Origin: a virus
Lineage: Duplodnaviria > Caudoviricetes
Length of the DNA: 54,718 nt
Strand: one strand, 5' to 3'
IMG/VR virus record: IMGVR_UViG_3300042535_000010
Location: 1-54,718 of that record
This document shows positions 1,718-29,056 of the stretch, piece after piece. The position numbers were made by a program, and so were the translations under genes. The notes beneath the pieces are model-generated. The model made no database searches. It saw nothing but the letters and a program-made list of their open reading frames with translations, and was not told the origin of the DNA. The stretch's first letter is position 1, and the number at the start of each line of letters is the position of its first letter.

Positions 1718-2143
1718 ATGACACCGTTCACTGTCACAGTCGATGCTGACGAGAAGAACCGGATCGCGGCCGCGACCTACTTCTTGACCGAGTACGAGGT
1801 CACGGGCTACATGGGCCCCTCGCAATGGGACGGGGGCACGCTCCATCTCCGGGGCTCGGCGGCGAGGGCGGAACTCGACCTAGCCCTAGCTTGGCCATTG
1901 ACCTACCCTCTGGCCGTCTACGGCACGCTCAAGAGCGGGGGCGAGAACCATCACCTGCTCGAGGGCCCGTGCCTTGGCGAGGCTACAGCGGGCGGCATGG
2001 TCGTGCTCGAGAACCATCTCTATACCGGGCTCGGCGCAGTGGCCCTCGAGCTCTACCCGTTCCAGGACCTGGACCTGTTCGAGGAAGGGTACACGCGCAC
2101 ACTCATACGTACATCTGCAGGCAGGGCCTGGGTCTACGTGTAA
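1718..2143 (+). CDS. Gamma-glutamylcyclotransferase (AIG2-like) family protein
   Basis: LAVYGTLKSGGENHHLL, LDLFEEGYTR and AWVY motifs; start uncertain. Confidence 0.75.
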   Translation: MTPFTVTVDADEKNRIAAATYFLTEYEVTGYMGPSQWDGGTLHLRGSAARAELDLALAWPLTYPLAVYGTLKSGGENHHLLEGPCLGEATAGGMVVLENHLYTGLGAVALELYPFQDLDLFEEGYTRTLIRTSAGRAWVYV

Positions 2144-2317
2144 GTCGCGGCGCCGGGCTCTACAGGGTCGCCACGGACGTGTAAGGCGCCAGACCCGCTG
2201 AGGTGCCTCGGCGCCGCGTTGACACATCTGACGCGAGGTCGCCGAAAAGGCAGGGAACGAGATCAAGGGGGAGGGTATAGTATGCCTATCACTACTTTCT
2301 CTCTCCCCTAGACTTTA

Positions 2318-2384
2318 GACCTATGTGTATATAGAGTAAAGGATGTATATGTGATTATGGTTTCAGGGGGTTACACGTTCCGGC
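2318..2384. repeat. AT-rich conserved 67-bp element, copy 1 (candidate origin/regulatory element)
   Basis: Ungapped 55/67 match to 26394-26460 by manual alignment; non-coding AT-rich gap. Confidence 0.85.
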
Positions 2385-2489
2385 TCACTCAAGGGCTATC
2401 TGTCAACCTGTAGACGCCAGGCCCGCCCTAGTGGGGCCACGCATCCCTAACCCTAGGTGTCGTTTCCTGTTACTATCAGCCGTTCACAG

Positions 2490-2504
2490 TGCTACACTAG
2501 GGAC
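2490..2504 (+). promoter_or_regulatory. Extended -10 leaderless promoter
   Basis: TGC-TACACT-N6-ATG(2505). Confidence 0.7.
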
Positions 2505-2855
2505 ATGAACGAGTTACTATCAACCGTTAGGGCCGCGATCAAGAACCTGCAGCAGCTCGAGGCCGCGCTGACGCAGCCCGTACTGGACCCGCTTCCTCTC
2601 CCTCTGTCGTCCGCCGCTGCCGCCTTGGTCGGGACAGAGATGCTAGCCCAGGCCATCTTGGCCCTCGACCCTCCCGACGTGCTGCGCATGCGGGAGCTAG
2701 CGGCACACATGGACCTGCCGCATCCCCAGTCGAGCCGAATGCTGGGCAAGGCACTACGCCGACTACAGTACGCGCGCGTGCACACAGGCGTTGAGCGTAT
2801 CTGGGTCCTACGCGGTGCACAGGTGTCCGAGCCTAAGCGCTGGGTCAGGGAGTAA
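2505..2855 (+). CDS. Stand-alone homologue of the primase-helicase C-terminal (winged-helix-like) domain
   Basis: SRMLGKALRRLQYARVHTGVERIWV vs ARKIGKVMSRLGWRRVHTGTARVWL at end of 26525-29041. Confidence 0.7.
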   Translation: MNELLSTVRAAIKNLQQLEAALTQPVLDPLPLPLSSAAAALVGTEMLAQAILALDPPDVLRMRELAAHMDLPHPQSSRMLGKALRRLQYARVHTGVERIWVLRGAQVSEPKRWVRE

Positions 2856-2866
2856 GGTCAGACGTG

Positions 2867-2881
2867 TGCTAGACTAGGCGC
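2867..2881 (+). promoter_or_regulatory. Extended -10 leaderless promoter of tape measure gene
   Basis: TGC-TAGACT-N6-ATG(2882). Confidence 0.75.
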
Positions 2882-4378
2882 ATGACCGTGATTTCCGAGC
2901 TCGTCTCGATTCTGACCCTGAAAACGGATAAGTCGAGTTTCAAGGAAGGTGAGACACAACTCACCAACTTTGCGCGCACGGCCCAAGCTGCGATCGGGTT
3001 CGACCTGTTCGGCAAGCTGAGCTCGAGTCTCCTGTCCTACGTGGAGCAGGCGGACCAGCTCGACGACACGTCCAAGGCCCTGGGCATCAGCGCGCAGCAG
3101 CTGCAGGCGCTCGGGTACGCGGCCAAGCTGAGCGGGTCCGACGTCAATGACATGATCGGGGCCTTGGGCCGGCTCAACAACGAGGTCGGCGCAGCGGCCG
3201 CGGGCGTGGGCGCGCAGACGGTCTTGTTCGCCAAGCTGGGCGTGGACGTATCCAAGGGCATGAAGCCCATGGCCGAGCTCCTGCCCGAGATCGCGGACGG
3301 GATCAGCAAGCTCCCGACGCACGCCGAGCGCGCGGCAGCGACCGTGCAGTTGTTCGGGCGCGGGGCTCGCGCCCTCGTCCCGTTCCTCGAGCAGGGGCGC
3401 GAGGGCATCAAGGCCCTGACCGACGAGTTCGAAGCGCTAGGCGGCGGCTTCACCGACGAGTTCATCGAGCGCGCGGCCAAGGTGCAGGACGAGCTCGATC
3501 GCGTGCACTACATTCAGCAGCGGGTCGCGAGCACGATGCTGTCCTCGGTCTTGCCGCCGTTCACGACCTTCCTGCAGGTGGCAGAGAAGGGCACGAACGC
3601 GACCATGAAGATGCTCGAGGGCACCGAGTTCCTGGGCGCTGCGCTCGCCACCACGACGGCGCTCGCGCTCGCTCAGGCCGCGGCCTTGGGCTTGTCCTCG
3701 AGCAAGGTCGGGCAGTTCATGCGGCTTGGCGCGGCCTTGGGCGTGGTCGCCCTGGCGGCAGACGACGTCAAGAGCTTCCTCGAGGGCGGGGACTCGGCCT
3801 TGGGCCAGATGCTGGAGCGCGCTGGTCTGATGAAGACTGCCATGGCCCTGGTCAAGGACGAGGTCGCGGGCCTGGACGAGCTCTTGAACCCCAAGAACAC
3901 GAACAAAAAGAGCTGGTTCGAGGATATCAAGGAGCAGAACATCGAGATCGGGCGCGCGATGCAGGAGCAGGTCAGGCTCCAGCGCGAGGTCGAGAAGCTG
4001 CGCGCGCAAGGCGGAGGCGCGGACTACTTCAAGGCTCTCAAGGCGCTAGAGGACGCGGACAAGCGCGTGCGCTACCTGCAGGCGAGCCCCGACGACAGGA
4101 ACGCGTTCACGGGCGACGCAGGGCGCCTGCAGCGCGCGAACAAGCGCGGGCTCGACGCCGAGGTGCAACAGCGCGTCTACGGGCGCGTGGGTGCGGACGT
4201 GCTACAGACCGAGGCCGGGGCAACCGGCGTGTCCTCGGTCCTGAACATGAACATCGAGAAGATCGAGGCCAATGACCCGGCCGACATGGCGCGGCAGATG
4301 AAGAACATCGCCAAGGACGCGCACGCTCAGCAGACCGAGGAGCTCCGGCGCGGGCTGGCGGGCAGGGTCAGGCCCTAG
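2882..4378 (+). CDS. Tail tape measure protein (short, 498 aa)
   Basis: N-terminal VISELVSILTL; Ala-rich helical TMP core (LGISAQQLQALGYAAKLSG, LFGRGARALVPFL); hydrophobic segment. Confidence 0.85.
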   Translation: MTVISELVSILTLKTDKSSFKEGETQLTNFARTAQAAIGFDLFGKLSSSLLSYVEQADQLDDTSKALGISAQQLQALGYAAKLSGSDVNDMIGALGRLNNEVGAAAAGVGAQTVLFAKLGVDVSKGMKPMAELLPEIADGISKLPTHAERAAATVQLFGRGARALVPFLEQGREGIKALTDEFEALGGGFTDEFIERAAKVQDELDRVHYIQQRVASTMLSSVLPPFTTFLQVAEKGTNATMKMLEGTEFLGAALATTTALALAQAAALGLSSSKVGQFMRLGAALGVVALAADDVKSFLEGGDSALGQMLERAGLMKTAMALVKDEVAGLDELLNPKNTNKKSWFEDIKEQNIEIGRAMQEQVRLQREVEKLRAQGGGADYFKALKALEDADKRVRYLQASPDDRNAFTGDAGRLQRANKRGLDAEVQQRVYGRVGADVLQTEAGATGVSSVLNMNIEKIEANDPADMARQMKNIAKDAHAQQTEELRRGLAGRVRP

Positions 4379-5979: not shown

Positions 5980-6040
5980 CCCTGCCGCGCGCCTGGCCTT
6001 CCTGTGGCCCGGCTAAAGCGCGAGCATGCTACACTAGGCC

Positions 6041-6790
6041 ATGGCCACGAAGCTGACCTGGGGTAGTTTCTTTCTCACCTTTGATGCAGTCCTGCGCGAG
6101 GTGCATACACTGAACCAGGAAGTGACCGAGCATCCGGTAGAGCAGGGCGCCGCGCTTGTGGATCACATCCGGCCGCTTCCGCTCGAGATCGCGCTCGAGG
6201 GCGTGATCAGCAACTCGCCCGTGTACCTGCCCCTGGATCATGCCGACGGCGTGAGCTGGCAGGCGCGCGAGGTCGAGGTCGAGCCCCAGACTCTGGCGGA
6301 TATCGTCGCGCGCAACCGGGGCTCGGCCGGAGTGTCCGGGGCATTCAACCCGATCGCGTCCCAGCTCGCGGCCTCGGCGGCGCAGCTCATCACGATACCC
6401 GGTCCCAAGGGGCGCGTATACGGCCCGAGCCAGCCCCTACAGAGAGAGCAGGCGGTCTACGCGACCCTGTCCGACCTGCGAGGCAAGGGCGAGCTCCTGA
6501 CCCTGTACACCGGCCTGGCCACGATCGAGCGGCTCGCGCTCGCGAGCGTGACGTGCTCGCGCGACGCCAGCGGAGGACTGCAGATCCAGATGACCCTGCG
6601 GCAGGTGCGCCTGGCCACGGTCGACGCCTTGCCCGAGACCAAGCCCCTGGTGACGGTCAAGGCCGCGCCGAAGAAGCGCGTGGCGGCGACCGAGAAAGCG
6701 CCCGAGGCCACGAACCGGGCGAGCCTGGGCTTCAAGGTCGGGGACAAGGCCGGGGCCTGGTCGCACAAGGGCGAGCTGGTCACGGATTGA
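6041..6790 (+). CDS. Tail tube initiator / baseplate (Dit-like) protein
   Basis: FDAVLREVH...VTEHPVEQGAALVDH motif typical of the gene after TMP in this myovirus type; TGC-TACACT-N5-ATG. Confidence 0.8.
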   Translation: MATKLTWGSFFLTFDAVLREVHTLNQEVTEHPVEQGAALVDHIRPLPLEIALEGVISNSPVYLPLDHADGVSWQAREVEVEPQTLADIVARNRGSAGVSGAFNPIASQLAASAAQLITIPGPKGRVYGPSQPLQREQAVYATLSDLRGKGELLTLYTGLATIERLALASVTCSRDASGGLQIQMTLRQVRLATVDALPETKPLVTVKAAPKKRVAATEKAPEATNRASLGFKVGDKAGAWSHKGELVTD

Positions 6791-6949: not shown

Positions 6950-6983
6950 ACCCCGACCATACCCCGCGTGCTAGACTAGCGCA

Positions 6984-7319
6984 ATGGCCAAAACGTTCGA
7001 TCTGTACCCCGAGCCTACCCGGATCAGGATCCTGGCCGGCACGACGCTTCGGTTGAACTGTCGGCCTAAATACGATACGGGCGCACAGGTCGACCTGACC
7101 TCGGCCACGTTCGAGACCTCGATTTTCGCCCGGACCGGGACGGCCCCGGCCGTGACCACGTTCGCCACCTCGCTCCTGAGCGACGGTCGTGTGCAGCTCG
7201 CCCTCACCGCGGCCGAGACCGACTTGATCCCCGGCTCGTGGGGGATATCGGCCACGGCGACGATCGGCTCGGTCGTGTTCGCGCTCCTGCGCGGCGACCT
7301 GACAGTGGTGGAACCATGA
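6984..7319 (+). CDS. Virion beta-sandwich (BppU-like) fibre adaptor
   Basis: VDLTSATF...[14 protein letters not shown]...LLRGDLTV pattern; ATGA-coupled to collagen-like fibre; TGC-TAGACT-N6-ATG. Confidence 0.6.
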
Positions 7320-8434
7320 GTGATATCGAGATCTTTACTACGCTCACGTCCGAGCTCTCGGTCGACGTCGCGCTCGGCGGCACGCCCGGGGCGACCGGGC
7401 CTCAGGGTCCGGCCGGTGCCGCAGGTGCGACTGGTGCTCAAGGCCCGCAGGGGGTTCAGGGCCCTGCGGGCGCGACCGGACCTCAGGGTCCTGCAGGTGC
7501 CGACGGTGCTGCGGGCGCGACCGGACCTCAGGGTCCTGCAGGTGCCGACGGTGCTGCGGGTGCGACAGGGCCGCAAGGGCCGACCGGCGCGACCGGACCT
7601 CAAGGCCCCGCAGGTGCCACCGGACCTCAAGGGCCGACCGGCGCGACCGGAGCCACAGGCGCGACAGGACCTGCGGGATCGTCCGGGAGCTCGAACGTCT
7701 ACCTAACCCCTCCTGTGGTCGCAGACTCTCTGGACGACGAGTTCACCGCGTACGCGGGTTGGACGATGTACGGACTGAACGATGCCTCCGTTCTGACCGA
7801 CGATGGGGACGGATCCACTAACCCGTGGACGTCGCCGGCCGCAGTGCACTTTCGACGCCGGACCCTCGATTCGCAACTGTTCCTGCAGTTTCCTAATGCG
7901 ACCAAGTCCTACATTTTGTACAAAGCTGTGACAGTGGCGGATACCTCCCTGTTCTGGCTACGCTGTGCGGTATCTGCGCAGTGGGATAATAACGCCTCCG
8001 GCAACTCAGTGGATGTAGGGTTCGGTCTGTGGAAGGACAACGGATCTGGGCTTCCGGCCAGCGCCGACGCACTTGTGGTGGAGTGGCGCAACCTATCAAG
8101 CACAGGCCGACAGATCGGGCTAATGGAACCACCTGGAAGCACTCGCGTGCAGTCCGGTCAGGCGCTGCAGAAAGGTGTGTCAGCCCCTGACATCGGCGGA
8201 TTTTTCGTCTCGACGGCCGGTGTCACTGGCGGGGCCAACTCGGTCTGGCGCCCGTTCTTTCATTCCTCGCACACCGGAGAGACGTGGCACGTCAGCGGCG
8301 CAGCGCGCAGCGTGACCGGATACACGCGAGTGTGGCTGGTCCTGCGCTTCGACTGCACCGTCGCACAAATCTCGCCTATCGTCACGATCGACTTCGTTAG
8401 ACGCAAGGTCGGCGCGTCGGCGTGGATTGTCTAG
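7316..8434 (+). CDS. Collagen-like fibre protein with beta-rich C-terminal domain
   Basis: About 30 Gly-X-Y triplets ([15 protein letters not shown]...); start MSDIEIF at 7316. Confidence 0.85.
7378..7690 (+). repeat. Collagen-encoding tandem repeats
   Basis: Recurrent GGCGCGACCGGACCTCA(A/G)GG units. Confidence 0.9.
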
Positions 8435-9857
8435 GCCTCGACCTGACACAGCGTCAGTCCACTGCTTAGTATCCGGATCGGGCTCACCACTAGCCAGCCG
8501 TGGCCGTTGACCAGGTACGCGCGCGCGTCCTCGTGTGTGCCGCACGCAGCTAGGGCGTGCATGCGCGTCAGCGCGATGTAGACGAACGACATGGTAATAG
8601 CTCGGGATACATGAGAGTGAACGCGTCCTCGTCTGTGTGATCGAAGTAGGCCTCGATCTCGCCATCGGCCCAGGCGGCCCATAAGACACGACATGGTGGT
8701 AGGACATCAGCCCAGCTTCTCCAGCCATCGTAGGGTCGGCCACCGATGTTTTGCACGTACATCTCGAACGCTTCTTTTCCGGTCATGGTTTAGTCCTAAC
8801 ACGAGATTCGGGGGTGCAGCAAGGACACTCCCGCGTACATGCGACCAGAAGCCAGCCTAAGGGCAGGCCAAAGAGAGCCCACGCCTCTGGCGCGCCGAGT
8901 AGACAGCCCAAGAACGCGGCAGGGCAGGCGAGCAGACACAAGAGCCCGATCAGGCCCATGCGCCCGTTTGACAAGTATCCGACAAGTAGGCAAACGCCTG
9001 CCATTATCATGGTGTCGCCTCGTGCAGTGCCTTGAGGTATCGCTGCACTAGCGCGTCGAATACCTCATCCGAGATCTCGCGCAGACCCGCGCGGTACGCG
9101 GCCTCGTGATACTGAATCAGTTCGCGCATTGCCTCTAAGGATTCCGCAGGCTTACGCCGTGGTTGTTTCATGGCTTGAGCCTCCATCGGGTCTTGACCCA
9201 GGGCCCAGGATGATCCTTCTCCCAGCCCGGGAATGGGGTGGTCCATCGTTCGTAGAGCGTGCTCCAGAACTGGACCGCGATCCCCTGCGCGACCAGGCTC
9301 CGGGCCTGGGTCACGCTGAAGCCGATCGCCATCGTCGGGATCGTGTCCCGGACGTAGTTCTTGCAGTCACGCGCGCCTCGGCAGGCAAAGCCCGTGAACA
9401 AGGGCTCGCCCTCGCCGCCGCAGAGTGGACACTTCATACGGCCCCGCACATTCTGGCCAGCGCCAAGACAAGGAGCACGAACACCAGCGCGCCGAGCGTG
9501 AAGTCAAACGAGGTCATACTGCCCCCTGCAGAGTCTCGACCATGGCCTTGAGCTCGGCCTCGGCGGCGCGCTTGGCAGCCGCCGCAGTCGTGTAGCCCAT
9601 CGAGAGCCAGACCGTGGTACCGCGCACCTGCGCGTACGCGACCCAGAGCGTGCTCGACCCCTGCGGGTGCACACGGGCTGCATCCCCTAGCAGCCACCAC
9701 TGTCCGGCTCGTTTCCATTTCTTGCTTAGCATCTCGACACCGCCTGCTTGTGGTTCTCGGCCAGCTCGCGCCGCCATCCCGCGCCGTGGCGGCGGATCAC
9801 GATCTCTCGCCACGCGGCGAGCGCGGCGACCAGGAGACAGGTCTCAGAATAGGTCAT
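8431..9857 (-). other. Minus-strand chain of small overlapping accessory ORFs (incl. 8568-8786, membrane ORF 8783-9010, ligase-N-like ORF ending 9007, CxxC ORF ending 9168)
   Basis: Successive stop/start overlaps downstream of the pentapeptide gene; starts uncertain. Confidence 0.6.
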
Positions 9858-10537
9858 CGGTATTCCTCCGCCTCGACGCGGGTCATAAAGAAATGTATGC
9901 CATGCGTACACTCGACCCTGATGTCGTCGTCGAACTTGTCCGCGGTCACCACAGATCCCACCGCACTATAGTCCAGTTCACCCTTCGTAGGTGACTTACC
10001 ACCCGCATCCATCACAATCACGTGGCTCGCGCGGCACTTACGCCCGACAAGCGAGCTTGTGCGGACTGCGTCTGCGGGGACCTGCACCCGGATAACACCT
10101 GTCGTGGTTTTCTTCCACGCCACGAACTCGCCCTCGCTCGGCACGATCTGAAAGTGCGGCAACTTCGCTCCAGTGAGGTTCGCGCCGCTGAGGTTCGCGC
10201 CGCTGGGGTTCGCGCCGCTGAGGTTCGCGCCGCTGAGGTTCGCGCCGCTGAGGTCCGCGCTGCGGAGGTTCGCGCTGCGGAGGTTCGCGCTGCGGAGGTC
10301 CGCGCCGCTGAGGCTCGCGCCGCTGAGGCTCGCGCCGCTGAGGCTCGCGCTGCGGAGGTCCGCGCTGCGGAGGTCCGCGCTGCGGAGGTCCGCGCTGCGG
10401 AGGTCCGCGCCGCTGAGGTCCGCGCTGCGGAGGGCCGCGCCGCTGAGGGCCGCGCCGATGAGGGCCGCGCCGCGGAGGTTTTCGGTCGGGATCGTGAGAA
10501 GTACAACACCCTGGTGATTTCTGATTTCGACAGGCAT
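9854..10537 (-). CDS. Pentapeptide repeat protein with DUF5758-like C-terminal domain
   Basis: About 20 A(D/N/S/A)L(S/R)(G/S) repeats, then GEFVAWKK...GRKCRAS...[18 protein letters not shown]. Confidence 0.9.
10174..10478. repeat. 15-bp tandem repeats encoding pentapeptides
   Basis: GAGGTTCGCGCCGCT / GAGGTCCGCGCTGCG units. Confidence 0.95.
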
Positions 10538-10590
10538 GCCCTAGTTCTGCCGCACGGCCTGGTCCCAGTCAACGTGCTATACTCCGATTC

Positions 10591-10905
10591 ATGCTCGTGA
10601 TCCCCACACCGGAGCTGACCGACTACCAGGACCTGTACGAGGTCGAGGCCAGGCTCGGGAGCAATGACTACCTCCTGCGCCTGGCCTGGGACGGCTCTCG
10701 CTGGTTCATTGACGTGCTCCTTAGCGACACGCTGGAGCCCCTGACCGAGGGCGCGCCCCTGACCCTGTGGCGTCCCGTGCTGGTCTACTGCACGCACGCC
10801 AGCCGCCCTGCGGGCGAGATCATGCTCATCTCCTCGACCGAGGACACGACCGAGGCTCAGCGCGCCGACCTAGGCGCACGCTGTGTGCTGGTGTATGTTG
10901 CCTGA
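10591..10905 (+). CDS. Baseplate plug-type small protein
   Basis: YEVEARLG..DYLLRLAW...WFIDV...DLG..CVLVYV; precedes hub; TGC-TATACT-N7-ATG. Confidence 0.7.
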   Translation: MLVIPTPELTDYQDLYEVEARLGSNDYLLRLAWDGSRWFIDVLLSDTLEPLTEGAPLTLWRPVLVYCTHASRPAGEIMLISSTEDTTEAQRADLGARCVLVYVA

Positions 10906-11707
10906 GCGCTCTATCTCACTCCACATCGGGGGCCTGATCGCGAACGAGCTCGACTGCACGTTCTCGGTCCAGGCCGACCTGTCGGATAAGCCCAACGTCG
11001 CGAGCATCCAGGTGTTTGGCGCGAGCGAGGCCACGCGCGCGGCATGGAGCGCGAGCGCGGCCGGGGTCGAGGTCCGGCTGCAGGCCGGGTACCGGGGCCA
11101 GAAGCTGGCCGATATCTTTCGCGGAAAGCTGCGTGATATCAATCACAAGCACGAGCACGCGGAGTGGGTCACGACCATCAGCTCTGGTGATGGCGACGAG
11201 GCGAGCGCCACGGTGGCCTTCAATCTGAGCCAGGGGTCGAGCATCCAGGCCGCAGTCGCGCGCGTCGCGCGAGACCTGAACCTGGCCACCAAGGACAACA
11301 AGACCCTGGCCGGGATCACGCTCGCGAATGGGGCCGCGCTGTTCGGTAAGTCCATGTCCGAGCTCGGGCGCATCACCGCTCAGTACGGCATGCGCCCGAC
11401 CATCCAGAGCGGCGAGCTGGTGGTCGTGCAGGACGGCAAGGCGCTGCCGGGTCGCTTCGTGGACGTCACGACCGGGCTCGTGGGCGCGCCCGAGGTCACG
11501 ACCACGGCTGTGAGCGTGAAGGGCCAGCCCCAGAAAAAGAAGCAGCGCCAGCTCAAGATCACGCACCTCATGACCGCCGACATCCGGCCAGGTTACCTGC
11601 TTGAGGTCGGGACCGAAGGCAGGTGGCTCGTCAAGCAGGTGACCTGGAGCGGGAGCACGTTCGGGAATGACTGGTATGTCACGGCCCTCTGCGTGCCCCC
11701 GGTCTAG
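10895..11707 (+). CDS. Baseplate hub protein
   Basis: PNVASIQVF...LQAGY...IFRG...SGDG; TGLVGAP; GSTFGNDWY. Confidence 0.85.
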   Translation: MLPERSISLHIGGLIANELDCTFSVQADLSDKPNVASIQVFGASEATRAAWSASAAGVEVRLQAGYRGQKLADIFRGKLRDINHKHEHAEWVTTISSGDGDEASATVAFNLSQGSSIQAAVARVARDLNLATKDNKTLAGITLANGAALFGKSMSELGRITAQYGMRPTIQSGELVVVQDGKALPGRFVDVTTGLVGAPEVTTTAVSVKGQPQKKKQRQLKITHLMTADIRPGYLLEVGTEGRWLVKQVTWSGSTFGNDWYVTALCVPPV

Positions 11708-11985
11708 AGCGAGGTCAGGTGAGCCAGCTCAGCCTTGCGTATGGCGTGCGCCTCTGGGCGAGCATACCAGCGAGCGCGTTCTGCGATCAGGTGACCATGG
11801 TGGAAAGCATCTACACAACCCTCTGTCGTGTGTCCGCGCTTGTCGACGCGCGCGTAAGGGTCACACGCGCGGCGTGCGCACGTGGGGCAGTGCGTGCCCG
11901 GATTCCCCGCTGCGGCGCGGATTGCGTTGATCTTGGCCGAAACCGAGGCTTGTTGCGTCGCCGGAACTTTGCGTGCGTTGCTCAT
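11704..11985 (-). CDS. Hypothetical zinc-binding protein
   Basis: CPTC...GCVDAFH; TTGCGC-N17-CATGAT-N6-ATG promoter. Confidence 0.65.
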   Translation of the reverse strand: MSNARKVPATQQASVSAKINAIRAAAGNPGTHCPTCARRACDPYARVDKRGHTTEGCVDAFHHGHLIAERARWYARPEAHAIRKAELAHLTSL

Positions 11986-11996
11986 ACCCAGATCAT

Positions 11997-12033
11997 GAAC
12001 GCGGCCGGTCGATCGCGCAAACCGGCCGCGTTC
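11997..12033. terminator. 13-bp perfect inverted repeat (terminator or operator hairpin)
   Basis: GAACGCGGCCGGT-N11-ACCGGCCGCGTTC followed by GTTTT on + strand. Confidence 0.6.
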
Positions 12034-12039
12034 GTTTTG

Positions 12040-12510
12040 TCAGTACAGGTCGGTCTCTGCGTACCAGATCCAAGAGTGCTTGACCCAGCACCGTTTCCCG
12101 CCGTCGTAGCTGAACGTGCGCAGGTCACCCGCAAGCAGCGGACCCAGCGCGACGTTCGAGACGATGGTCTTGTTCTCGACCCAGATCACACCGCGGCCTG
12201 TGTAGGGGTCCACCCGTGACGTGTATGTGAACCAGCCCGGGACCCTGCAGCGGGCGCACGCCCAGCCGCCCGTGCACTGGCGCCCGTAGTAGTCGATCCC
12301 GTAGGTGCAGTCAGAGGTCTCGCCTACGAAGCACTTGAGTGCGTTCAGCGTGTCGTAGCCACGAGTCTTCAGCGTGGGCCAGGTCATGGCTCCAGAGAGC
12401 GCCTCTACGCGCGCTGTCACGCCCCCGTCCTCATCCCCCGTATCAGGCGCGCGCGGCTCGGTGTCCAGTGAGCACGCGGTCAGTAGCACACACAAAAATA
12501 GATGTCGCAT
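12040..12510 (-). CDS. Cys-rich lipoprotein
   Basis: Signal peptide with lipobox LTAC; GGAGG upstream; acidic linker. Confidence 0.75.
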   Translation of the reverse strand: MRHLFLCVLLTACSLDTEPRAPDTGDEDGGVTARVEALSGAMTWPTLKTRGYDTLNALKCFVGETSDCTYGIDYYGRQCTGGWACARCRVPGWFTYTSRVDPYTGRGVIWVENKTIVSNVALGPLLAGDLRTFSYDGGKRCWVKHSWIWYAETDLY

Positions 12511-13237
12511 GTCAGCCTCCGTTGTGAATAAAGATGCGATCTTAGACCGGGCCGAGGTACGCCAGGTGTCGCTAGTATCAGGTTAGATGCACATGTGTGC
12601 GAAGCGCTTGCGCATGTTGCCTCCAGCGTGTGTAGGTTGCCGTCCGAGGTCTCTACTATGAGCTGAGACCCCTGCACGTCCAGGACCAGGACCCAGCCAT
12701 TGACCGCGCCCTGGACCTTGATGATGTCGCCTACCTCGGGCATCGGAGCCGGATCACTTCGCCGATGCTGAGGAAACCGGCGCGGCTGCGGAACATGTCG
12801 GCAGCGACGTCGTATCGGACGCGACAGACGAGCACGCGGACGCGACGCCGCTGCTTGTTCCAGCGCTTACGGTCGCGGCGCAGGCGGCGCGCGGTAGTAG
12901 TCGTTTCCATATTTTACCTCCGTGTAGCTCCAGCTCAACCGAGATCATACCCGCAACCCAGGCCCGGGTCACAACCTCGTAATCCTTGCAGCCCAGCGCG
13001 CGCAGCGCGGGGCCTGCGTACGTGCCCGGATGTTCTGACACGTACGCAGCTAACGCATGCATCTGATGTCCGCGTCTCATAGGCTCACCGCAACCGAGAG
13101 CACACCCTCGGGAATGATGTAGGACCTGAACCAACCGCGCTCGCGGGCGCCACGGAAGCGCGTGCACCGGAACAGGCGCAGCGCTTCCTCACGCTCAATC
13201 GAGACCCAGCCGCAGCGGTCAGTATAGAGTTGGTACT

Positions 13238-13815
13238 TCATGATCCAATCCTACGATAGTGCTGCTGCCAGTCAAGCAGACAGTGAGCATCTTCCGCCTG
13301 ATCCCAGCTCCAGAGCCACTGCACCTCATGCACCCCAGACGCGAGCCCGGCCTGAGCAATCCGCGTCCAGTACGCCAGCTCTAGGATTTGCTCTGGGACT
13401 TCTGCGCCGCCGTTGCCGCTGCCTTGGCTGCGCGCAGGGCCGCGGCGCGGGCGAAAAAACCCTGGAAGTTCCAGGCAATGTGCGCTTCCATGATCTCGAA
13501 CAGGTCGCCTACGTCTGGGCCCACGAACGGGCCCCCGACGCCGGCCGCTGTGGTGACGGGTGCGAAGTGGCCTTCAGGACCGCGCACCTCGGTCTGGGGC
13601 TCGAACGCGCTATAAAACTGCTCGAACAGCTCCGGTGTGAGCGAGGCGCCTACAGCCAGCTCTTGGTTTCCGCCGCCGCCGATGAGCGCGGCGCGGGAGA
13701 TCGTGGCCGTCAGCGTGACGAGCAGCGGGCGCGCGAGCACGGCCGGCAGCGCGGTGATGCGGTAGGTCTTACCGCCTAGGGTCGTGAGAGTCTTCTGGGG
13801 CAGGGTGTTTGCCAT
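13238..13815 (-). CDS. Tail assembly chaperone, -1 frameshifted long form (gpGT-like)
   Basis: Slippery G-GGT-TTT-TTC at 13462-13453; -1 frame open to TGA at 13240-13238 (..ELAYWTRIAQAGLASGVHEVQWLWSWDQAEDAHCLLDWQQ..). Confidence 0.7.
13381..13815 (-). CDS. Tail assembly chaperone (gpG-like)
   Basis: LGGKTYRITALPA...LFEIMEAHIAWNFQGFF resembles chaperones of DUF3383/DUF3277 myoviruses. Confidence 0.75.
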   Translation of the reverse strand: MANTLPQKTLTTLGGKTYRITALPAVLARPLLVTLTATISRAALIGGGGNQELAVGASLTPELFEQFYSAFEPQTEVRGPEGHFAPVTTAAGVGGPFVGPDVGDLFEIMEAHIAWNFQGFFARAAALRAAKAAATAAQKSQSKS

Positions 13816-13818
13816 GGT

Positions 13819-14511
13819 CTATACCTTACACACCTGGTAGAGGGTGTCAACTTTCGTGACCTCGGACGTGCCCGAGACCGCGATCCTGCGCGGTATCTCT
13901 AGCACGACCCTGTGTGGTGTAGGGCACGAGAACTCGGAGACATACACGGCGGTGTACTGCGCCCACTCCTGGCAGCGAGCCCAGAAAGACGCATGGTCGA
14001 AGTCTCCGGTGCTGTAGCCTGTGGTCCCCGCGTACGGAGGATCGCAGTAGATGATCCCGTTTATCGGTCCGGGTGTGACATCGAAGAACGAGAGCCTCAC
14101 GATAGGCCAGGAGGCGAGGGCGGCGAGTTGTCGTTGTAGCGCGCGCTTGGTGTATATGTGCTCTAGCTTGCCGGGGTTGTGCTTTGCGTACCCCCCGAAG
14201 TACATACCCCCGAACGAGCACCCGAACCCGGCAAAGCCCTTCATCGGATCCGAGTCCGGCAGCATTTTTGCCTCTCGCCACATGGCCTCGGTCACGTGCT
14301 CTGGCGGGGTCCAGCCTGCCCGAACGGCCTGGTAGAGGGCGATCAAGGCCGGGTGTACGTCGCTGGCGACACCAGGACCGGTCTTGGAAAACTCAGTTGC
14401 CATCGAGAGGCCGCCGCAAAACGCGTCCCAGACCGGGACGTTGCCGACATCGGCTCGAATCGCCTTGACCAGATGTTTCGCCAGCCTGTGTTTCCCGCCC
14501 AGATACTGCAT
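13819..14511 (-). CDS. D12-class N6-adenine DNA methyltransferase, copy 1
   Basis: MQYLGGK, DAFCGG, IYCDPPY, VYVSE motifs. Confidence 0.9.
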   Translation of the reverse strand: MQYLGGKHRLAKHLVKAIRADVGNVPVWDAFCGGLSMATEFSKTGPGVASDVHPALIALYQAVRAGWTPPEHVTEAMWREAKMLPDSDPMKGFAGFGCSFGGMYFGGYAKHNPGKLEHIYTKRALQRQLAALASWPIVRLSFFDVTPGPINGIIYCDPPYAGTTGYSTGDFDHASFWARCQEWAQYTAVYVSEFSCPTPHRVVLEIPRRIAVSGTSEVTKVDTLYQVCKV

Positions 14512-14530
14512 GTGCTAGGCTTAGCACATG
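14509..14530. promoter_or_regulatory. Palindromic bidirectional leaderless promoter
   Basis: CATGTGCTA-GGCT-TAGCACATG spans both divergent start codons (14511 minus, 14528 plus). Confidence 0.7.
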
Positions 14531-15208
14531 AACGAGACCTCGCACGTGGATGTTTTCCAGGCCGTGATCACGGACGCGCTCATCGACGTCCACACCGCGC
14601 TGCCGGGGACCGTGACCAGCTACGCGACCCAGACCCAGCGCGCGACCGTGAGCCTGGACATTCCGGTGTACCAGGATTACGCAATGCCGGACCTGCGCGA
14701 CGTCCCGGTCCTGTGGCCGGCCTGCGCGGCTGGGATCCTGCACCTGCCCTTAGCCGCAGGCGACAAGGTCCTGGTTCTGTTCTCGGAGGAGAGCATCGCG
14801 CGCTGGAAGGCGAGCGGAGCCCCAGGACCGAGCGCGGACCCCCGTCGGCACGGGCCGGACGGCGCTGTCGCGCTCCCGATCCGGGTCCAGGCCTCGGCCG
14901 TGCCCGCGAGCGCGGCCGGGCTGATGGCCGCCGAGGTGTGTCTAGCTGATCCGAACCCGAGCTACCACGCGGCCAGGGGAGAGACCGTGGACCAGCAGCT
15001 CGCCAAGGTGACGGCAGACCTGCTCGCGCTCAAGACGGCGCTGATCACATTCATGCAGACGATCGCGCCTCCCGGCCCTCCTGCTCCGGCGCCGGCGCCG
15101 GTTATGAATACCCTGGTAGTCACGGCAACCAGCACATTCCTTTCCACTACAGGGGCGCTCCCGCAGGTGCTACTTCCGGTCTCTGCCACGAAGGTGCGCC
15201 TTACGTAA
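14528..15208 (+). CDS. Baseplate central spike (Gp138-like)
   Basis: VHTALPGTVTSY...DVPVLWP...LHLPLAAGDKVLVLFSE...RRH..DGAVA. Confidence 0.88.
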   Translation: MNETSHVDVFQAVITDALIDVHTALPGTVTSYATQTQRATVSLDIPVYQDYAMPDLRDVPVLWPACAAGILHLPLAAGDKVLVLFSEESIARWKASGAPGPSADPRRHGPDGAVALPIRVQASAVPASAAGLMAAEVCLADPNPSYHAARGETVDQQLAKVTADLLALKTALITFMQTIAPPGPPAPAPAPVMNTLVVTATSTFLSTTGALPQVLLPVSATKVRLT

Positions 15209-15228
15209 CGACGTGGTATACTTGACGC

Positions 15229-15450
15229 ATGCTTGCTCAACTCCCGAAGCTGCCCCCGTGGGCGCACATGCTCCTGCTCGCAGTCTCGGGCGCGCTGAGC
15301 GCCGTGGCTGTGTCTCTGCCCGATCCCTGGAAGGGGATTGTGGGCGGTCTCGGCACCACGGGCTTGACCGTGGCCGGACTGCTGAACCGTAAGGAGGGAG
15401 CGCCTAATGCCGACGCTAACGGACCTGGCCCTACCTCTGCAGGTCAGTAA
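15229..15450 (+). CDS. Small two-TM protein, possible holin
   Basis: Two hydrophobic segments and polar tail; TGG-TATACT-N6-ATG. Confidence 0.5.
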   Translation: MLAQLPKLPPWAHMLLLAVSGALSAVAVSLPDPWKGIVGGLGTTGLTVAGLLNRKEGAPNADANGPGPTSAGQ

Positions 15451-15856
15451 CGGCCAGCTCGTGTTCCGGGTCGACGGCAACGCCGTAGCCCAGCGCATAG
15501 CCAACCGCGTGCTGACGTTCCGGAACGAGTGGTTTCTAGACGCGAACACAGGTACGCCATACTACGAGCAGATCCTAGGCGCGGTCCCGGACGAGCAAGC
15601 GGCTGCGTCCGTGTTCCGCGCTGTGGTCCAGGCAGACCCCGCGGTGTTGGCGGTGCCTGTCTGCGTCGTGACCTACTCGCTCGCGACCCGCCTGTTCTCG
15701 GTCAGGATCGAGGCCACGATCTCGCTCCCGGGAGACGGCACGGCCGGGGATACCGGCTCGGTCTTGATCACGGTCGGCGGCCTACCTGACGGCGCGATCG
15801 TGATCGATGGTCTGGCGCTGGTCGTGGGTGGGGTCCCGGTCGTGGTGTCACTCTGA
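15407..15856 (+). CDS. Baseplate wedge / sheath initiator (gp25-like)
   Basis: AVAQRIANRVLTFRNEWFLDANTGTPYYEQILG; AAGGAGG upstream. Confidence 0.85.
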   Translation: MPTLTDLALPLQVSNGQLVFRVDGNAVAQRIANRVLTFRNEWFLDANTGTPYYEQILGAVPDEQAAASVFRAVVQADPAVLAVPVCVVTYSLATRLFSVRIEATISLPGDGTAGDTGSVLITVGGLPDGAIVIDGLALVVGGVPVVVSL

Positions 15857-16171
15857 GTCACACGTCTGGCTTGGGCACACGTACCAGGTGCTGAACTGAG
15901 GCGAGCACTTGCTGGGCACCATCTCGTGCCCACAATCGGGGCAGGGATGAGACTCCGGCATGGGGTATAGCCGAACCCCTCGGCTGTCGCGCTCACAGCG
16001 CACTAGCCCGGCGTCAATCGCCCGGTGTACGGTGTTGTAGCCATAGCTCTCGGCCTTCTCGGGCACGGGGCAGGGGTTCACATGGTGCGCAGCCGCGCAC
16101 ATGTAGAGACCGGGGTTGCGCTCGACGAACGACACGACCTGAGACATACGGGGACCGATTCGCTTAGCCAT
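15848..16171 (-). CDS. Hypothetical HTH + zinc-ribbon protein (MAKRIGPRM...)
   Basis: AAGGAG SD; TTGCGA-N17-CAGACT upstream; CPDC...CPSQTC. Confidence 0.6.
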   Translation of the reverse strand: MAKRIGPRMSQVVSFVERNPGLYMCAAAHHVNPCPVPEKAESYGYNTVHRAIDAGLVRCERDSRGVRLYPMPESHPCPDCGHEMVPSKCSPQFSTWYVCPSQTCDSE

Positions 16172-16265
16172 CTGAGTTACTCCTTGTTCGCTGACAAAGA
16201 ACAGTCTGGCGTTGAAGGGTCCGGCTCGCAAGCCGGCTGCGTCGATTCATGCTATCCTACCCGAC

Positions 16266-17444
16266 ATGGGTCTATCACCTACCGGCTTCAGCGTCCGCAC
16301 CCTACAGGAGATCCGAGACAGCCTGGCCGCGGATGCCCGCGCGCGCATTGACCCGACCCTGGACGTGAGCGACAACGCGGCATTCGGCAGGCTGCTTGGG
16401 ATCTGGTCGGAGCGTATCCTGGCGCTGGAGCAGAGCTTGCGCGACGTGTGGCAGAGCTACCGGGTCGAAGGTGCGACCGGGGTGAGCCTCCGCTCGCTCG
16501 GCGCGCTGACCGGCACCCTGCCCGAGGCCGCGAGCTACAGCTCGGTCACCCTTTCATTCACGCTGCAGGCTGGAGTCACGGTCGCGGCTTTGAGCGAGTT
16601 CCGCGTGCCGGGCGACACGGTCACGGTATGGGCGACGCAAGCGACCGTAACCAATAGCGGGGGCTCGCCCCTGGTCGTGACCGTGGCAGCGCTTGCGAAC
16701 GCGACCGGCCCGAAGGCGGCTGCAGCCGGGACCATCACGGAGTTCCTCAGCCCAGTCATTGGCGCTGTCGTGACCAATCCCGCGGATGCAGTGCTAGGCG
16801 CGAATGAAGAGACTGACGCTGAGTTCCGACTTCGCCGCGAGATCGAGCTCCGGGACCAGGGCTCGGCTGCGCTCGAGGCGATCATCTCGGCCGTGTCGAA
16901 GGTCACAGCTGTCGTGACAGTGTCTGGCCGCGAGAACGAGACCGACTCCACGGTGGACAGCTTGCCCGCGCACCATTTCGAGATCGTGATCTGGGACGGC
17001 GGAGGTAGCGCGGACGATGATGCTGTTGCTCAGGCGATCTGGGACAACAAAGCGGCCGGCGTCGGGAGCTACGGCAGCGCGAGTGGTACGGCCGTCAACA
17101 CGCTCGGTCAGGACAAGACCGTGTCGTTCACGCGCGCGAGCGCGCTGCTCGTTTACGCCGCGGTCCAGGTCTCGATCGACACCTCGACATGGACAGACTC
17201 GGGCGCAGCCATCACCGCGATCAAGCAGGCCCTGGTCGACTACGCGGACGGCACCTGGACCATTGGCGACGACATCGCGCGCGCCGCTCTCTACGCGCCG
17301 ATCTTCGCCCTGGGTGGAATCAAGAACGTGACCCAGCTCTCAATCGGCACGAGCGCGAGCCCTAGCGGCACGGCCGATCTCGCTGTCGCGATCACGCAGT
17401 ATCCCCAGCTCGCGACTGCGCGCATCGGAGTGACGATCGTATGA
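16266..17444 (+). CDS. Baseplate J-like protein
   Basis: MGLSPTGF; ATGVSLRSLG; GANEETDAEFRLRR; KAAGV; TGC-TATCCT-N7-ATG. Confidence 0.92.
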   Translation: MGLSPTGFSVRTLQEIRDSLAADARARIDPTLDVSDNAAFGRLLGIWSERILALEQSLRDVWQSYRVEGATGVSLRSLGALTGTLPEAASYSSVTLSFTLQAGVTVAALSEFRVPGDTVTVWATQATVTNSGGSPLVVTVAALANATGPKAAAAGTITEFLSPVIGAVVTNPADAVLGANEETDAEFRLRREIELRDQGSAALEAIISAVSKVTAVVTVSGRENETDSTVDSLPAHHFEIVIWDGGGSADDDAVAQAIWDNKAAGVGSYGSASGTAVNTLGQDKTVSFTRASALLVYAAVQVSIDTSTWTDSGAAITAIKQALVDYADGTWTIGDDIARAALYAPIFALGGIKNVTQLSIGTSASPSGTADLAVAITQYPQLATARIGVTIV

Positions 17445-18004
17445 GCACGCATGAGGACCTGGCCGTCGCTCGGCTGCCTGAGCATATGCGGGGCGACGAC
17501 AAGCTGGACGCGCTCGTGCGCGTGCTCGCCGCGCCGATGGATGGACTCCAGGCTGAGTGCACGCTCGTGTCCGAGGCGTACCGGATCGAGACCGCGCTCG
17601 GGGCCCAGCTCGACGCGATCGGCGAATGGGTCGGGCTCACGCGCGAGGGTCGGCCGGACGAGGACTATCGCCTGTGGCTGCAGGCTCAGCTACTAGTGCT
17701 GCGCACGGCAGGCCGGGCACAAGACCTGGAGACGATCCTGACCCTGGTCGCGGGCACGGCAGAGCTGGAGCTGCTCGACTTCGTGGGCTATGTCCAGTTC
17801 TCGGCCGCGCCGCTCCTGCGCGCCGAGCAGGTCTACGCGATCTTGCACCGGGCCAAGGCCGCAGGCGTGCGCATCGGCCTGGTCTACAGCGAGTACGAGG
17901 ACTTGATCTTGTTCGGAACCCCTGCCGAGTATGCATACGACGCCACTGTAGGTATCGGGGACACAGGCACGGTTGGCGGGCGCCTCGCCAGTGTGCTAGC
18001 GTGA
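17441..18004 (+). CDS. Baseplate wedge protein (DUF2612 / gpI-like)
   Basis: ALGAQLDAIGEWVGLTR..DEDYRLWL; AKAAGV; coupled to gpJ. Confidence 0.85.
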   Translation: MSTHEDLAVARLPEHMRGDDKLDALVRVLAAPMDGLQAECTLVSEAYRIETALGAQLDAIGEWVGLTREGRPDEDYRLWLQAQLLVLRTAGRAQDLETILTLVAGTAELELLDFVGYVQFSAAPLLRAEQVYAILHRAKAAGVRIGLVYSEYEDLILFGTPAEYAYDATVGIGDTGTVGGRLASVLA

Positions 18005-18007
18005 AGC

Positions 18008-18385
18008 ATGGAAAAAGCTAACGTTGTCACGTGGCTGCTCAAGCACAATCGGATCGTGGGTCTGAACCTGAACGCGACCGTGCCTGGGGTCGTGCTGCCT
18101 GTGGACCTCATGACACACGAGCAGGTGGTTCTAGAAATAGGTCTCGACCTTCCAAAACCGATCCACGACCTGTGGATAGACGGCAACGGAATCGCGGGCA
18201 CGCTCTCCTTTGACCGCCCGGTGCATTGCTTGATCCCGTGGGCCGCGTTGCGCGCCGCGTGGGGGAAAGACGGCAGAGGTACGGTCTGGGACGACGTCCC
18301 AGGCCCGAAGCAGTCCGCCGTCGCGGTCCTGGACGGCGGCGCGGAAACGACACCGCCGAAGCGCGGGCACCTGCGATTGTGCTAG
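18008..18385 (+). CDS. sspB: SspB-like ClpXP adaptor, copy 1
   Basis: PGVVLP...VLEIGLDLPKPIHDL...GTLSF...IPWAAL...GRGTVWDDVP; C-terminal HLRLC resembles ClpX-binding LRVVK tail. Confidence 0.8.
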   Translation: MEKANVVTWLLKHNRIVGLNLNATVPGVVLPVDLMTHEQVVLEIGLDLPKPIHDLWIDGNGIAGTLSFDRPVHCLIPWAALRAAWGKDGRGTVWDDVPGPKQSAVAVLDGGAETTPPKRGHLRLC

Positions 18386-18394
18386 ACTAGGCAC

Positions 18395-19465
18395 ATGGCA
18401 CGACCTGTCGACTATCCAGACTTCGCCACCTCAGGCACCCGCACAGCACCGCCAGGCCCCGTCACATCCGCGGGCTGGACCCCAGGTAACCGCCTGCCTG
18501 CCGTGTGGATGAACTACCTACAAGGCCTCTGCGGCGACTGGATCCGGCAGCTCGTGCTCGAGTCCGACGGCTCAGCCCGGCTCGCCCCTACGACGCAGAA
18601 CGCGTTCACAGTCTCGGATCCAGACTACGCCCCGATCGACGTCGCGACTGAACCGGGCGCGAACTTATGGCAGTGTGTGCTCAAGATGCACACAGGGCTA
18701 ATCTCAGCCGGCAACAACTGCGACGTCCGGGTGTATGTAGGTAATGGGAGCGAGGGCTACGTCGCGATCGTCGTCAACACCCTGTTTCATCACCCAAGCG
18801 CCAAGTGGCGCAACATGAACACGACGCTGGACTCGCGCGCGTTGTTCATCGGCCCGGGTGGTGTGTCGTTCAAGTTCAAGGCCGCCGCTTCGGCGGCCTG
18901 GACAACCTGGACCGACTACACGAACCTAGATGTAGGTCAGATCACGGCGACCGGGTTCATCGCCGCTACGGGGAATATCACGTCAGGCGGCAACGTCACC
19001 GCCAGCGGATACATGTCCGCGGACTACTACCAGACCCCGAACACGACATTGACCGCGCCAATCCGCCTGGCGAGCGCCCAAGGCAACGTGTCTCGCGTGG
19101 GCGCTACGGGCGCGATCAAGCCTGCGTCTGGAACAGCGGTGATCTACTGGCCTTTCCAGCGCCCCCTCAACTCGACATGGGGCGACATCGTGATCGTGCT
19201 GAACCAGGCGACATCGACCCCGGGCCAGTTTGAACTCATGCGCCGAGACGCGGACGGAGGCGCGGGCGGCGCCCCCGCCGTGGCGATCGACTTCACCGTC
19301 GGGACCGGGACCGGGACCGGGCGCAAGGTTGTGACCCTGGCGACGTCGGGGGGCGAGTATGTCTCGAGCGAGGATTACGAGCTCGTGTGGACCCCGGGTG
19401 CTACCGCAGACGAGGTCGAGCAGATCCAGATGAGCTGGACCGACAGAGGACCGCGAAACGACTAG
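18395..19465 (+). CDS. Tail fibre protein
   Basis: MARP..PDFAT...GWTPG.RLPAVWMNYL N-terminus; follows baseplate; TGC-TAGACT-N6-ATG. Confidence 0.8.
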   Translation: MARPVDYPDFATSGTRTAPPGPVTSAGWTPGNRLPAVWMNYLQGLCGDWIRQLVLESDGSARLAPTTQNAFTVSDPDYAPIDVATEPGANLWQCVLKMHTGLISAGNNCDVRVYVGNGSEGYVAIVVNTLFHHPSAKWRNMNTTLDSRALFIGPGGVSFKFKAAASAAWTTWTDYTNLDVGQITATGFIAATGNITSGGNVTASGYMSADYYQTPNTTLTAPIRLASAQGNVSRVGATGAIKPASGTAVIYWPFQRPLNSTWGDIVIVLNQATSTPGQFELMRRDADGGAGGAPAVAIDFTVGTGTGTGRKVVTLATSGGEYVSSEDYELVWTPGATADEVEQIQMSWTDRGPRND

Positions 19466-19544: not shown

Positions 19545-19592
19545 ACATCGAAGTCTAGCATTCGTGAGGCGTTTTTGCTAGGATTGCACACA

Positions 19593-29041: not shown

Positions 29042-29056
29042 CAGGGTTCTCCCTGT

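Follow-up and report, generated by a model that had tools for sequence, protein, structure and literature searches.

Phage P4 requires both ori and crr, and its small Cnr protein acts via the DNA-binding domain of the alpha protein. Alpha itself brings together, in one polypeptide, a primase, a superfamily 3 (SF3) helicase and a C-terminal winged-helix origin binder (PDB 1ka8; passages of PMC4234260 and PMC2777425); this winged helix binds the origin repeats (passages of PMC4234260), and cnr controls the plasmid copy number of P4 (passages of PMC8628076). The Reps of SaPI islands are self-loading initiator-helicases whose binding and melting need no ATP, and their C-terminal winged helix reads iterons of 5-6 nucleotides (nt), which lie on both sides of an AT-rich region in opposite directions (passages of PMC9371898). 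Passages of PMC2777425 and PMC4234260 present the pRN1 protein ORF904 (prim-pol, SF3 and winged-helix domains) and P4 alpha as proteins that bind their origins autonomously. We analysed the DNA of a phage from sediment (IMG/VR record IMGVR_UViG_3300042535_000010; its whole length of 54,718 nt is called the window below), in which a short AT-rich element stands in two copies, one upstream of the gene of a Prim-Pol/VapE-type primase-helicase and the other upstream of ORF116, a small open reading frame (ORF) whose product is a paralogue of the C-terminal domain of this primase-helicase. We tentatively propose, as a possible reading, that each copy is an initiator-binding and unwinding site of the SaPI Rep or P4 alpha type, and that ORF116 is a free winged-helix regulator like P4 Cnr.

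The sequence-only reading of this DNA had described an ungapped repeat with 55 identical positions out of 67, a common motif upstream of both copies, a high AT-content in a GC-rich genome and a distance of about 24 kb, about half of the genome, and these descriptions all proved accurate. The identity of 55/67 between 2318-2384 and 26394-26460 was reproduced, and a DNA search of the genome with the element finds the second copy with E 2.5e-14 (82% identity). The best ungapped 67-nt match between both intergenic regions has the same 55 identities, whereas mononucleotide shuffles of region 2 (n = 30) gave a mean of 31.3 and a maximum of 33. A 24-nt head motif, with up to 3 mismatches, occurs twice in the window (any match in 0 of 100 shuffles), and an 18-nt tail motif also occurs twice, a count reached by 1 of 100 shuffles. 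The upstream motif GGGAGGGT(C)ATAGTAT is found at 2269 and 26345 and nowhere else in the window. No third copy of the element appeared in the window with a two-copy profile (nhmmer --max, filters off; next best E 1.2), and the element is not among the 20 families listed by a general repeat scan. The two copies are separated by 24,076 nt, i.e., 44% of the record. The lowest-GC 60-nt stretch of the window (33%) lies in copy 1 and copy 2 reaches 42%, against 64.5% for the genome; in nearest-neighbour duplex stability, at windows of 40, 70 and 100 nt, the lowest value belongs to copy 1 and the third lowest to copy 2. The second least stable duplex of the genome (23430-23469), at the junction of the leftward genes 22914-23444 and 23441-25162, is unlike the repeated element.

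The repeat is longer than first described and bipartite, with a 31-nt module A, a spacer and a 67-nt module B. Its parts, and the short repeats around them, are the following:

2253-2283, + strand: module A of copy 1, GGGAAC-N-GATC-N-GGGAGGGTATAGTAT (nhmmer E 7e-5, no third copy)
26331-26360, + strand: module A of copy 2, aligned to 2253-2283
2268-2308: inverted repeat GGGGAGGG / CTCTCCCC of copy 1, with a 25-nt loop that holds ATAGTAT (from the fold of 2268-2400)
26346-26368: perfect hairpin of copy 2, with GGAGGGT (26346-26352), the 9-nt loop CATAGTATC and ACCCTCC (26362-26368)
2318-2384, + strand: module B of copy 1, with ATGTGTA at 2323-2329 (+) and ACGTGTA at 2372-2378 (-)
26394-26460, + strand: module B of copy 2, with ATGTGTA at 26399-26405 (+) and ACGTGTA at 26448-26454 (-)
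2136-2142 and 2177-2183, + strand: two extra ACGTGTA heptamers, 41 nt apart, left of copy 1
26285-26314, + strand: pentamer run GCTTTACAC AACAC AACAC G TTT TACACT, with four NACAC in one orientation at 26289-26313

Module B is an inverted pair of AYGTGTA heptamers placed around a 42-nt AT-rich core, which contains two alternating pyrimidine-purine runs. In copy 2, it also carries an internal 7-bp inverted repeat (GTAAAGC / GCTTTAC), which copy 1 lacks. The inverted repeat of module A is present in both copies with different loops, and the spacer of about 34 nt between the modules is identical at 10 of 33 positions, which is the chance level. AYGTGTA occurs eight times in the window, four times at 2136-2378, twice at 26399-26454 and twice elsewhere, so that six of the eight lie within the two regions; two of the four outside the blocks are found at most 190 nt from copy 1 (p ~0.002, a post hoc estimate that supposes uniform placement). 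TTACACG occurs three times in the genome, always within 2100-2504 (left of or inside copy 1), and GCTTTAC three times, always in region 2. DnaA-box-like TTWTNCACA sites, with one mismatch allowed, are not enriched (21 in the window, of which 3 lie in the two regions, against 17.5 expected). Two other candidates for these regions were rejected: a conserved small peptide encoded across the element, a 28-codon ORF of copy 2 being stopped in copy 1; and an intrinsic terminator, none being found in either region and no + strand gene ending before copy 2.

Each copy precedes one of two genes:

2505-2855, + strand: ORF116 (P0001), 116 amino acids (aa), ATG at 2505 and stop codon at 2853-2855; free-standing winged-helix-like protein, paralogue of the helicase C-terminus
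26525-29041, + strand: Prim-Pol / VapE-type SF3 helicase (P0002), 838 aa

The primase-helicase carries a VapE-like domain (PF05272, E 1.3e-35) and a Prim-Pol domain (PF09250, E 1.2e-13), and falls in helicase and primase families of PHROGs. Over its ATPase domain, it matches the PDB chain 7pds_A (E 1.1e-11), which we take to be SaPI5 PriRep5, going by the single occurrence of this code in the main text of PMC9371898, where cryoEM structures of the SaPI proteins PriRep5 and Rep1 are presented. Residues 16-106 of ORF116 align with residues 755-837 of the helicase (about 28787-29035) with 30% identity, 22% gaps and E 1e-8 in a single comparison; the likeness of the two protein ends, noticed earlier from the letters, is hence established as paralogy by alignment. 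The frame of 2457-2855 has a coding-type GC-content by codon position (0.68/0.46/0.74). A structure model of ORF116 built from a five-row alignment (ORF116 and four relatives) has a predicted local distance difference test score (pLDDT) of 72, against 47 for a single-sequence model, and follows the order helix-helix-strand-helix-helix-hairpin, which in this prediction is that of a winged helix, with the core elements H36-53, E59-61, H62-68, H75-86, E89-93 and E98-102. The stretch best conserved between the paralogues, RxxGKxxxRL..RVHTGxxRxW, corresponds to the putative recognition helix (third core helix) and wing. In the ESM Atlas, as leads only, ORF116 lies near winged-helix models and has a feature hit to DUF3874 (PF12990; 0.89), and VapE C-termini and DUF3874 are the neighbours of the helicase tail (score 0.96); a PDB sequence search with the domain profile A3 returned rows at chance level (E >= 0.3).

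A profile made of ORF116 and the helicase tail retrieved three further proteins from 1.84 billion representatives (E 2.4e-5 to 1.4e-4), two of them free-standing, in which the domain is repeated twice in tandem (165 and 161 aa), and one of 383 aa with three copies. Compared over its own architecture with the free-standing metagenome proteins P0005 and P0006, ORF116 gives E 1e-9 and E 2e-9, respectively, which makes it a member of a tiny stand-alone protein family and not merely debris. The proteins P0004, P0005 and P0006, with two or three tandem domain copies and the motif LGxxLRxxGYxRVHTGxERxWL, form an uncharacterised family related to the tails of VapE-type helicases. In a set of 5.8 billion proteins, ORF116 found only itself, the helicase found one relative (P0003, 29% identity) and profile A3 found solely P0005 and P0006. 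A role of ORF116 as a tail assembly chaperone was rejected, since it matches no such family and a weak chaperone match lies elsewhere (13381-13815).

The coding DNA shared by ORF116 and the helicase tail is identical at 47 of 93 nt and at 9 of 31 third positions, i.e., saturated, whereas module B keeps 55/67. This contrast implies either a constraint on module B, or else a copying event later than that of the gene or a homogenisation by conversion.

The element also has to be placed relative to the promoters of its neighbours. A class of sites of the form TGCTANNNT-N5-7-ATG has 14 matches in the window against 0.28 expected, a number reached by 0 of 100 shuffles. By coordinates, all of the 14 but 39045-39061 (-), i.e., 13, coincide with a start codon on the ORF list, and most of them precede tail and baseplate genes; they are given here together with the variant of the primase-helicase gene:

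2490-2507, + strand: promoter and start codon of ORF116, TGCTACACT-N6-ATG
26260-26277, - strand: promoter and start codon of the leftward PD-(D/E)XK exonuclease gene (25162-26262), TGCTANNNT class
26513-26527, + strand: variant promoter of the primase-helicase, gcgcTACAGT-N6-ATG
2867-2884, 6027-6043, 6969-6986, 10575-10593, 14513-14530, 16250-16268, 17994-18010, 18380-18397, 20027-20044 and 53058-53076, + strand: other TGCTANNNT promoters
19542-19560 and 39045-39061, - strand: other TGCTANNNT promoters

From its sequence and position, this class is best read as an extended -10 box with a predicted transcription start at or next to the ATG, giving leaderless mRNAs, and it points to a host that probably makes frequent use of leaderless translation. 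One TGCTANNNT promoter each belongs to ORF116, to the tape measure gene and to the leftward exonuclease gene. The distance from module B to the -10 of the gene is 109 nt for copy 1 and ORF116, versus 53 nt for copy 2 and the primase-helicase. Since the leaderless promoters of both genes lie downstream of the element, module B is not a leader of their mRNAs. Copy 2 sits in a 238-nt gap between the leftward leaderless promoter of the exonuclease and helicase genes and the rightward primase promoter. The 10-mer TACACTAGGG occurs twice in the window: at 2493-2502, it is the -10 region of the ORF116 promoter; at 26309-26318, it precedes module A of copy 2 by 20 nt and lacks the TGC prefix, and there it could be a weak rightward promoter that reads through copy 2.

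We propose the following mechanism for these sites. The initiator, in which a Prim-Pol primase is joined to a VapE-type SF3 helicase that ends in a putative winged-helix domain, would load itself at the cis sites; this C-terminal domain would recognise the AYGTGTA heptamers that face each other across the 42-nt core, this AT-rich core would melt, helicase rings would load, and the Prim-Pol domain would prime. Copy 2, between the divergent operons of replication genes, would be the likelier primary origin, and copy 1 a second site, either a secondary origin or an auxiliary one like the crr of P4. ORF116, expressed from its own leaderless promoter 109 nt past copy 1, may occupy the same heptamers or pair with the initiator domain, and would in this way tune initiation in the manner of P4 Cnr. 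We favour this replication-site reading because module B, which lies on the DNA of the genome that melts most easily, resembles a small version of the SaPI origin layout and because copy 2 lies between divergent replication operons; it gains weight from the non-coding block, which keeps 82% identity while the coding paralogues are saturated.

Several observations weigh against this reading. The AYGTGTA motif was defined after inspection of the blocks, and over the whole genome it is not enriched, with 8 occurrences where 4.57 are expected and as many in 11 of 100 shuffles. Each block has a single inverted heptamer pair, against the 6-12 iterons given for SaPI origins in passages of PMC9371898, and even with the two extra heptamers left of copy 1 and the four NACAC left of copy 2, the repeats are fewer than the 'at least two each side' of SaPI; the outlying TACAC-type sites are, moreover, oppositely oriented in the two regions. 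The element lies upstream of the initiator gene, whereas the SaPI and pRN1 origins, in the passages that describe them, lie downstream. Copy 1 stands among late tail genes, with no strand switch, and module A with its hairpin is left unexplained by the model. ORF116 belongs to no family of Pfam or PHROGs at E <= 0.01. For the product of 2505-2855, the winged-helix character stands in the topology of the model (pLDDT 72) and not in Foldseek, which gave no match at E <= 0.001 (best E 0.19); by their titles, the top 10 rows (E 0.19-0.29, none significant) are 7 winged-helix nucleic-acid binders and 3 methyltransferases. The origin interpretation already offered by the sequence-only reading was upheld in its domain paralogy and its origin-like anatomy, and the non-coding RNA that it named as an alternative found no support (see below); the GC skew, on the other hand, did not follow it, as there is no inflection at 2.3 or 26.4 kb in the cumulative curve, whose detrended extremes are at 5386 and 41170.

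Finally, no relatives usable for judging the conservation of the element were obtained from INPHARED, PLSDB, IMG/VR, JGI, GTDB or the protein sets. The phage is an orphan, without close relatives in the collections searched. There was no match in INPHARED phages by DNA search, nor with ORF116 or P0005; the helicase protein found 590 INPHARED records, all below 60% identity and none covering 80% of the query. No match was obtained in PLSDB plasmids with P0005, in IMG/VR with the helicase protein, a 22-nt element pattern or P0005, in JGI metagenome contigs with profile A3 or P0005, or in GTDB genome contigs with profile A3. Relatives of the terminase in IMG/VR are 32-42% identical, and their three records contain no helicase relative.

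The main rival of the replication-site reading is a role of the element as promoter or operator, which we consider rather doubtful. Module A (GGAAC-N16/17-YATAGT) would be a second promoter class or the docking site of a regulator, module B the operator or upstream control region of two co-switched units, and ORF116 a transcription factor derived from the winged helix of the initiator. Both copies are located upstream of + strand gene starts, in the same orientation; GGAAC or GGAAAC followed 15-17 nt later by TATAGT or CATAGT occurs in both copies and nowhere else in the window; and copy 1 heads the tape-measure and baseplate block. Free winged-helix proteins are mostly transcription factors, and winged-helix nucleic-acid binders are frequent among the top Foldseek rows, none of them significant (7 of 10). 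However, both downstream genes already possess a leaderless -10, 6 nt before the ATG. A transcript starting from module A would carry some 170-220 nt of leader, and neither ATG would be preceded by a usable Shine-Dalgarno sequence. The distance from module B to the -10 also differs between the copies, as given above. A scan for sigma-70 consensus hexamers (-35/-10, spacing of 16-18 nt) found no site in 1900-3000 or 26000-26700. No gene for a sigma factor or an RNA polymerase was recognised among the 39 ORFs scanned, a set that leaves out several small ORFs and in which the 752-aa ORF at 20042-22300 has no family.

A more elaborate form of the replication-site reading, which we hold to be unlikely, is a two-site switch. 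The full initiator would fire at copy 2, and ORF116, made beside copy 1, would occupy the shared heptamers and close initiation, redirect it or couple it to late expression, or would block the origin of a superinfecting relative. In the OBPC protein (UL8.5) of herpes simplex virus 1 and the repressor forms of papillomavirus E2, the DNA-binding domain of an initiator or of its partner is made alone and competes at the origin. These forms come from the same gene, by internal starts or splicing, whereas ORF116 is encoded by a gene apart, which diverged long ago and has a site copy to itself. If the two-site switch were true, it would be the bacterial-virus counterpart of stand-alone origin-binding-domain repressors, reached by the joint duplication of a gene and its cis site.

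That the element and ORF116 at 2.3-2.9 kb are a functionless scar of duplication or recombination, in which the upstream region and the 3' end of the primase-helicase gene were copied and the middle lost, appears quite unlikely. Element and domain were indeed duplicated together with their order kept, and the genome has other paralogous pairs, i.e., the D12 methyltransferases (93 nt, inverted, 76%) and 1-636 versus 51241-51885 (94-95%). However, the divergence is uneven, with third positions at 9/31 and the block at 55/67, which is not expected from one neutral duplication; and the GC-content of ORF116 by codon position is of the coding type, its promoter is intact and of the class found throughout the genome, and its product resembles the free-standing P0005 and P0006.

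It is very improbable that the element is a transcribed RNA, either a small RNA or a cis-acting leader in two copies. A -10-like TACACT (26309) stands upstream of copy 2, ATAGTAT is a possible -10 in both copies, and the GGGAGGG/CCCTCC pairing is kept in both despite unlike loops. On the other hand, the folds of module B do not exceed those of shuffled sequences in stability (+ strand, z +1.68 and +0.09; - strand, z +0.58 and -0.60), and the RNAalifold consensus is weak (-6.4 and -4.0 kcal/mol): 2 of 17 pairs are changed on both sides, both in the non-conserved flank, in an alignment of only two sequences, which is no proper covariation test. Rfam gave no match at the gathering score over the whole window, and the sole row in E-value mode is a fragment of a long non-coding RNA (E 0.21). 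The 28-codon ORF across copy 2 is also closed by a stop codon in copy 1. Hence, within the limit of two sequences, neither folding, consensus folding nor Rfam speaks for the non-coding RNA named earlier.

A cis site of another type, be it for centromere-like partition, for packaging or for the serine recombinase whose gene is at 52244-53005, has very little probability as well. Although centromere-binding winged-helix proteins (pNOB8 AspA, TubR) are among the weak Foldseek rows and the window encodes a serine recombinase and an HNH endonuclease, there is no ParA/TubZ-type gene among the ORFs scanned, a crossover of the direct repeats, which are 24 kb from each other, would divide the genome into two parts, and the element is distant from the terminase gene (41594-43003).

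P4 is the closest known design, with its primase-helicase carrying a winged-helix origin binder, its ori and crr, and its small copy-number protein Cnr; given this precedent, the design is less new than the sequence-only reading implied. Yeo et al. 2002, to judge by its title, reportedly deals with regulation through homo- and heterodimers of winged-helix proteins. The likeness lies in the primase-helicase made as one polypeptide, in two separate cis sites that carry initiator repeats, and in a small copy-number protein, the last two roles being putative for the phage. The differences are several. The primase of alpha is of the DnaG/Toprim type in passages of PMC4234260, whereas the phage has a Prim-Pol; ORF116 is a demonstrable paralogue of the initiator's own domain, and we claim no homology between ORF116 and Cnr, no P4 sequence having been compared. 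Each cis site of the phage stands beside one of two paralogues, and the carrier is a 55-kb full-size myovirus, not a satellite.

With SaPI, the phage shares a primase-helicase that is a sequence relative of 7pds_A and an AT-rich centre; the oppositely oriented short repeats that flank this centre in SaPI (passages of PMC9371898) have a candidate counterpart in the heptamer pair. In the same passages, however, the SaPI origin is single, just downstream of rep, with 6-12 iterons, whereas the phage element is upstream and double, with one heptamer pair per block plus outliers; the main-text passages of PMC9371898 mention no free winged-helix paralogue. The pRN1 protein ORF904 has the three-domain order that is predicted for the phage protein, and its isolated winged helix folds and binds DNA (passages of PMC2777425); the pRN1 origin is likewise a non-coding element adjoining the gene (passages of PMC4234260). 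In the passages that describe it, this origin follows the gene and consists of a stem-loop of 100 nt that has no iterons, whereas the 133-nt units of the phage have no large stable stem-loop (z +0.45 and -1.14) and a short hairpin in module A only. On its sequence, the phage system appears to be set apart from the P4, SaPI and pRN1 families, as the iterons of SaPI type are only partly found here. A limited and narrow literature search found no description of a duplicated origin-like element next to which the tail of a Prim-Pol/VapE helicase has a free-standing paralogue.

The rest of the genome is that of a myovirus, as judged by PHROG and Pfam scans of its ORFs, in a linear record with a CheckV completeness of 100%. 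The main landmarks, from these scans, are:

1493-2143: GGACT-domain gene, whose stop codon is overlapped by the ACGTGTA at 2136-2142
2882-4378: tape measure protein
6041 and 7238: tail fibres
10883-18004: baseplate genes
22256-26262, leftward: deoxynucleoside monophosphate (dNMP) phosphatase, helicase and PD-(D/E)XK exonuclease
26525-34115, rightward: Prim-Pol/VapE helicase, D12 methyltransferase, family A polymerase, exonucleases and resolvase-like endonuclease
35323: head protease
36931: major head protein
39657: tail sheath
41594-43003: large terminase
43504: portal
44972: Mu-F-like protein

The module order at 35323-45859 is unusual, since the protease, major head protein and sheath precede the large terminase, the portal and the Mu-F-like protein, and the tail module is split, the tape measure gene (2882-4378) lying about 16 kb further, beyond a block of small genes. 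Near the record ends, direct repeats of 94-95% identity (1-275 versus 51241-51515; 368-636 versus 51617-51885) correspond to paralogous coding sequence; on a circular map, they bracket the genes of a serine recombinase/invertase (52244-53005) and an HNH endonuclease (53380-54042). Their divergence is too large for a terminal redundancy. The two paralogous D12-class adenine methyltransferases are in opposite orientation (13819-14511, - strand; 29057-29752, + strand) and share the 93-nt inverted match at 13962-14054 and 29514-29606. At 10105-10524, about 28 tandem copies of a 15-nt unit, which would give a pentapeptide-type repeat if translated, lie inside overlapping ORFs of both strands (9854-10537, -; 10173-10517, +). 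The tail fibre ORF at 7238-8434 has collagen-like Gly-X-Y repeats at 7375-7678 and matches many PHROG families of tail fibre or collagen-like proteins. The 752-aa ORF (20042-22300) has its own leaderless promoter and no Pfam or PHROG family at E <= 0.01. There are no tRNA or tmRNA genes in the window.

If the replication-site reading is true, this phage would offer a compact case of the regulation of a self-loading primase-helicase, made of two short DNA sites and two small domains, in which the DNA-reading domain of the initiator has been copied as a separate gene along with its target site. The logic of P4 alpha, Cnr and ori-crr would then extend to the Prim-Pol/VapE initiators, which are far more widespread in phages and islands and most of whose origins have yet to be mapped. 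Other such origins could be sought by a sequence signature, in which an inverted heptamer pair encloses the most easily melted DNA and a VapE-type gene adjoins it. Moreover, the set of TGCTANNNT-N6-ATG promoters may help to work out how this orphan phage is transcribed and what type of host it is likely to have.

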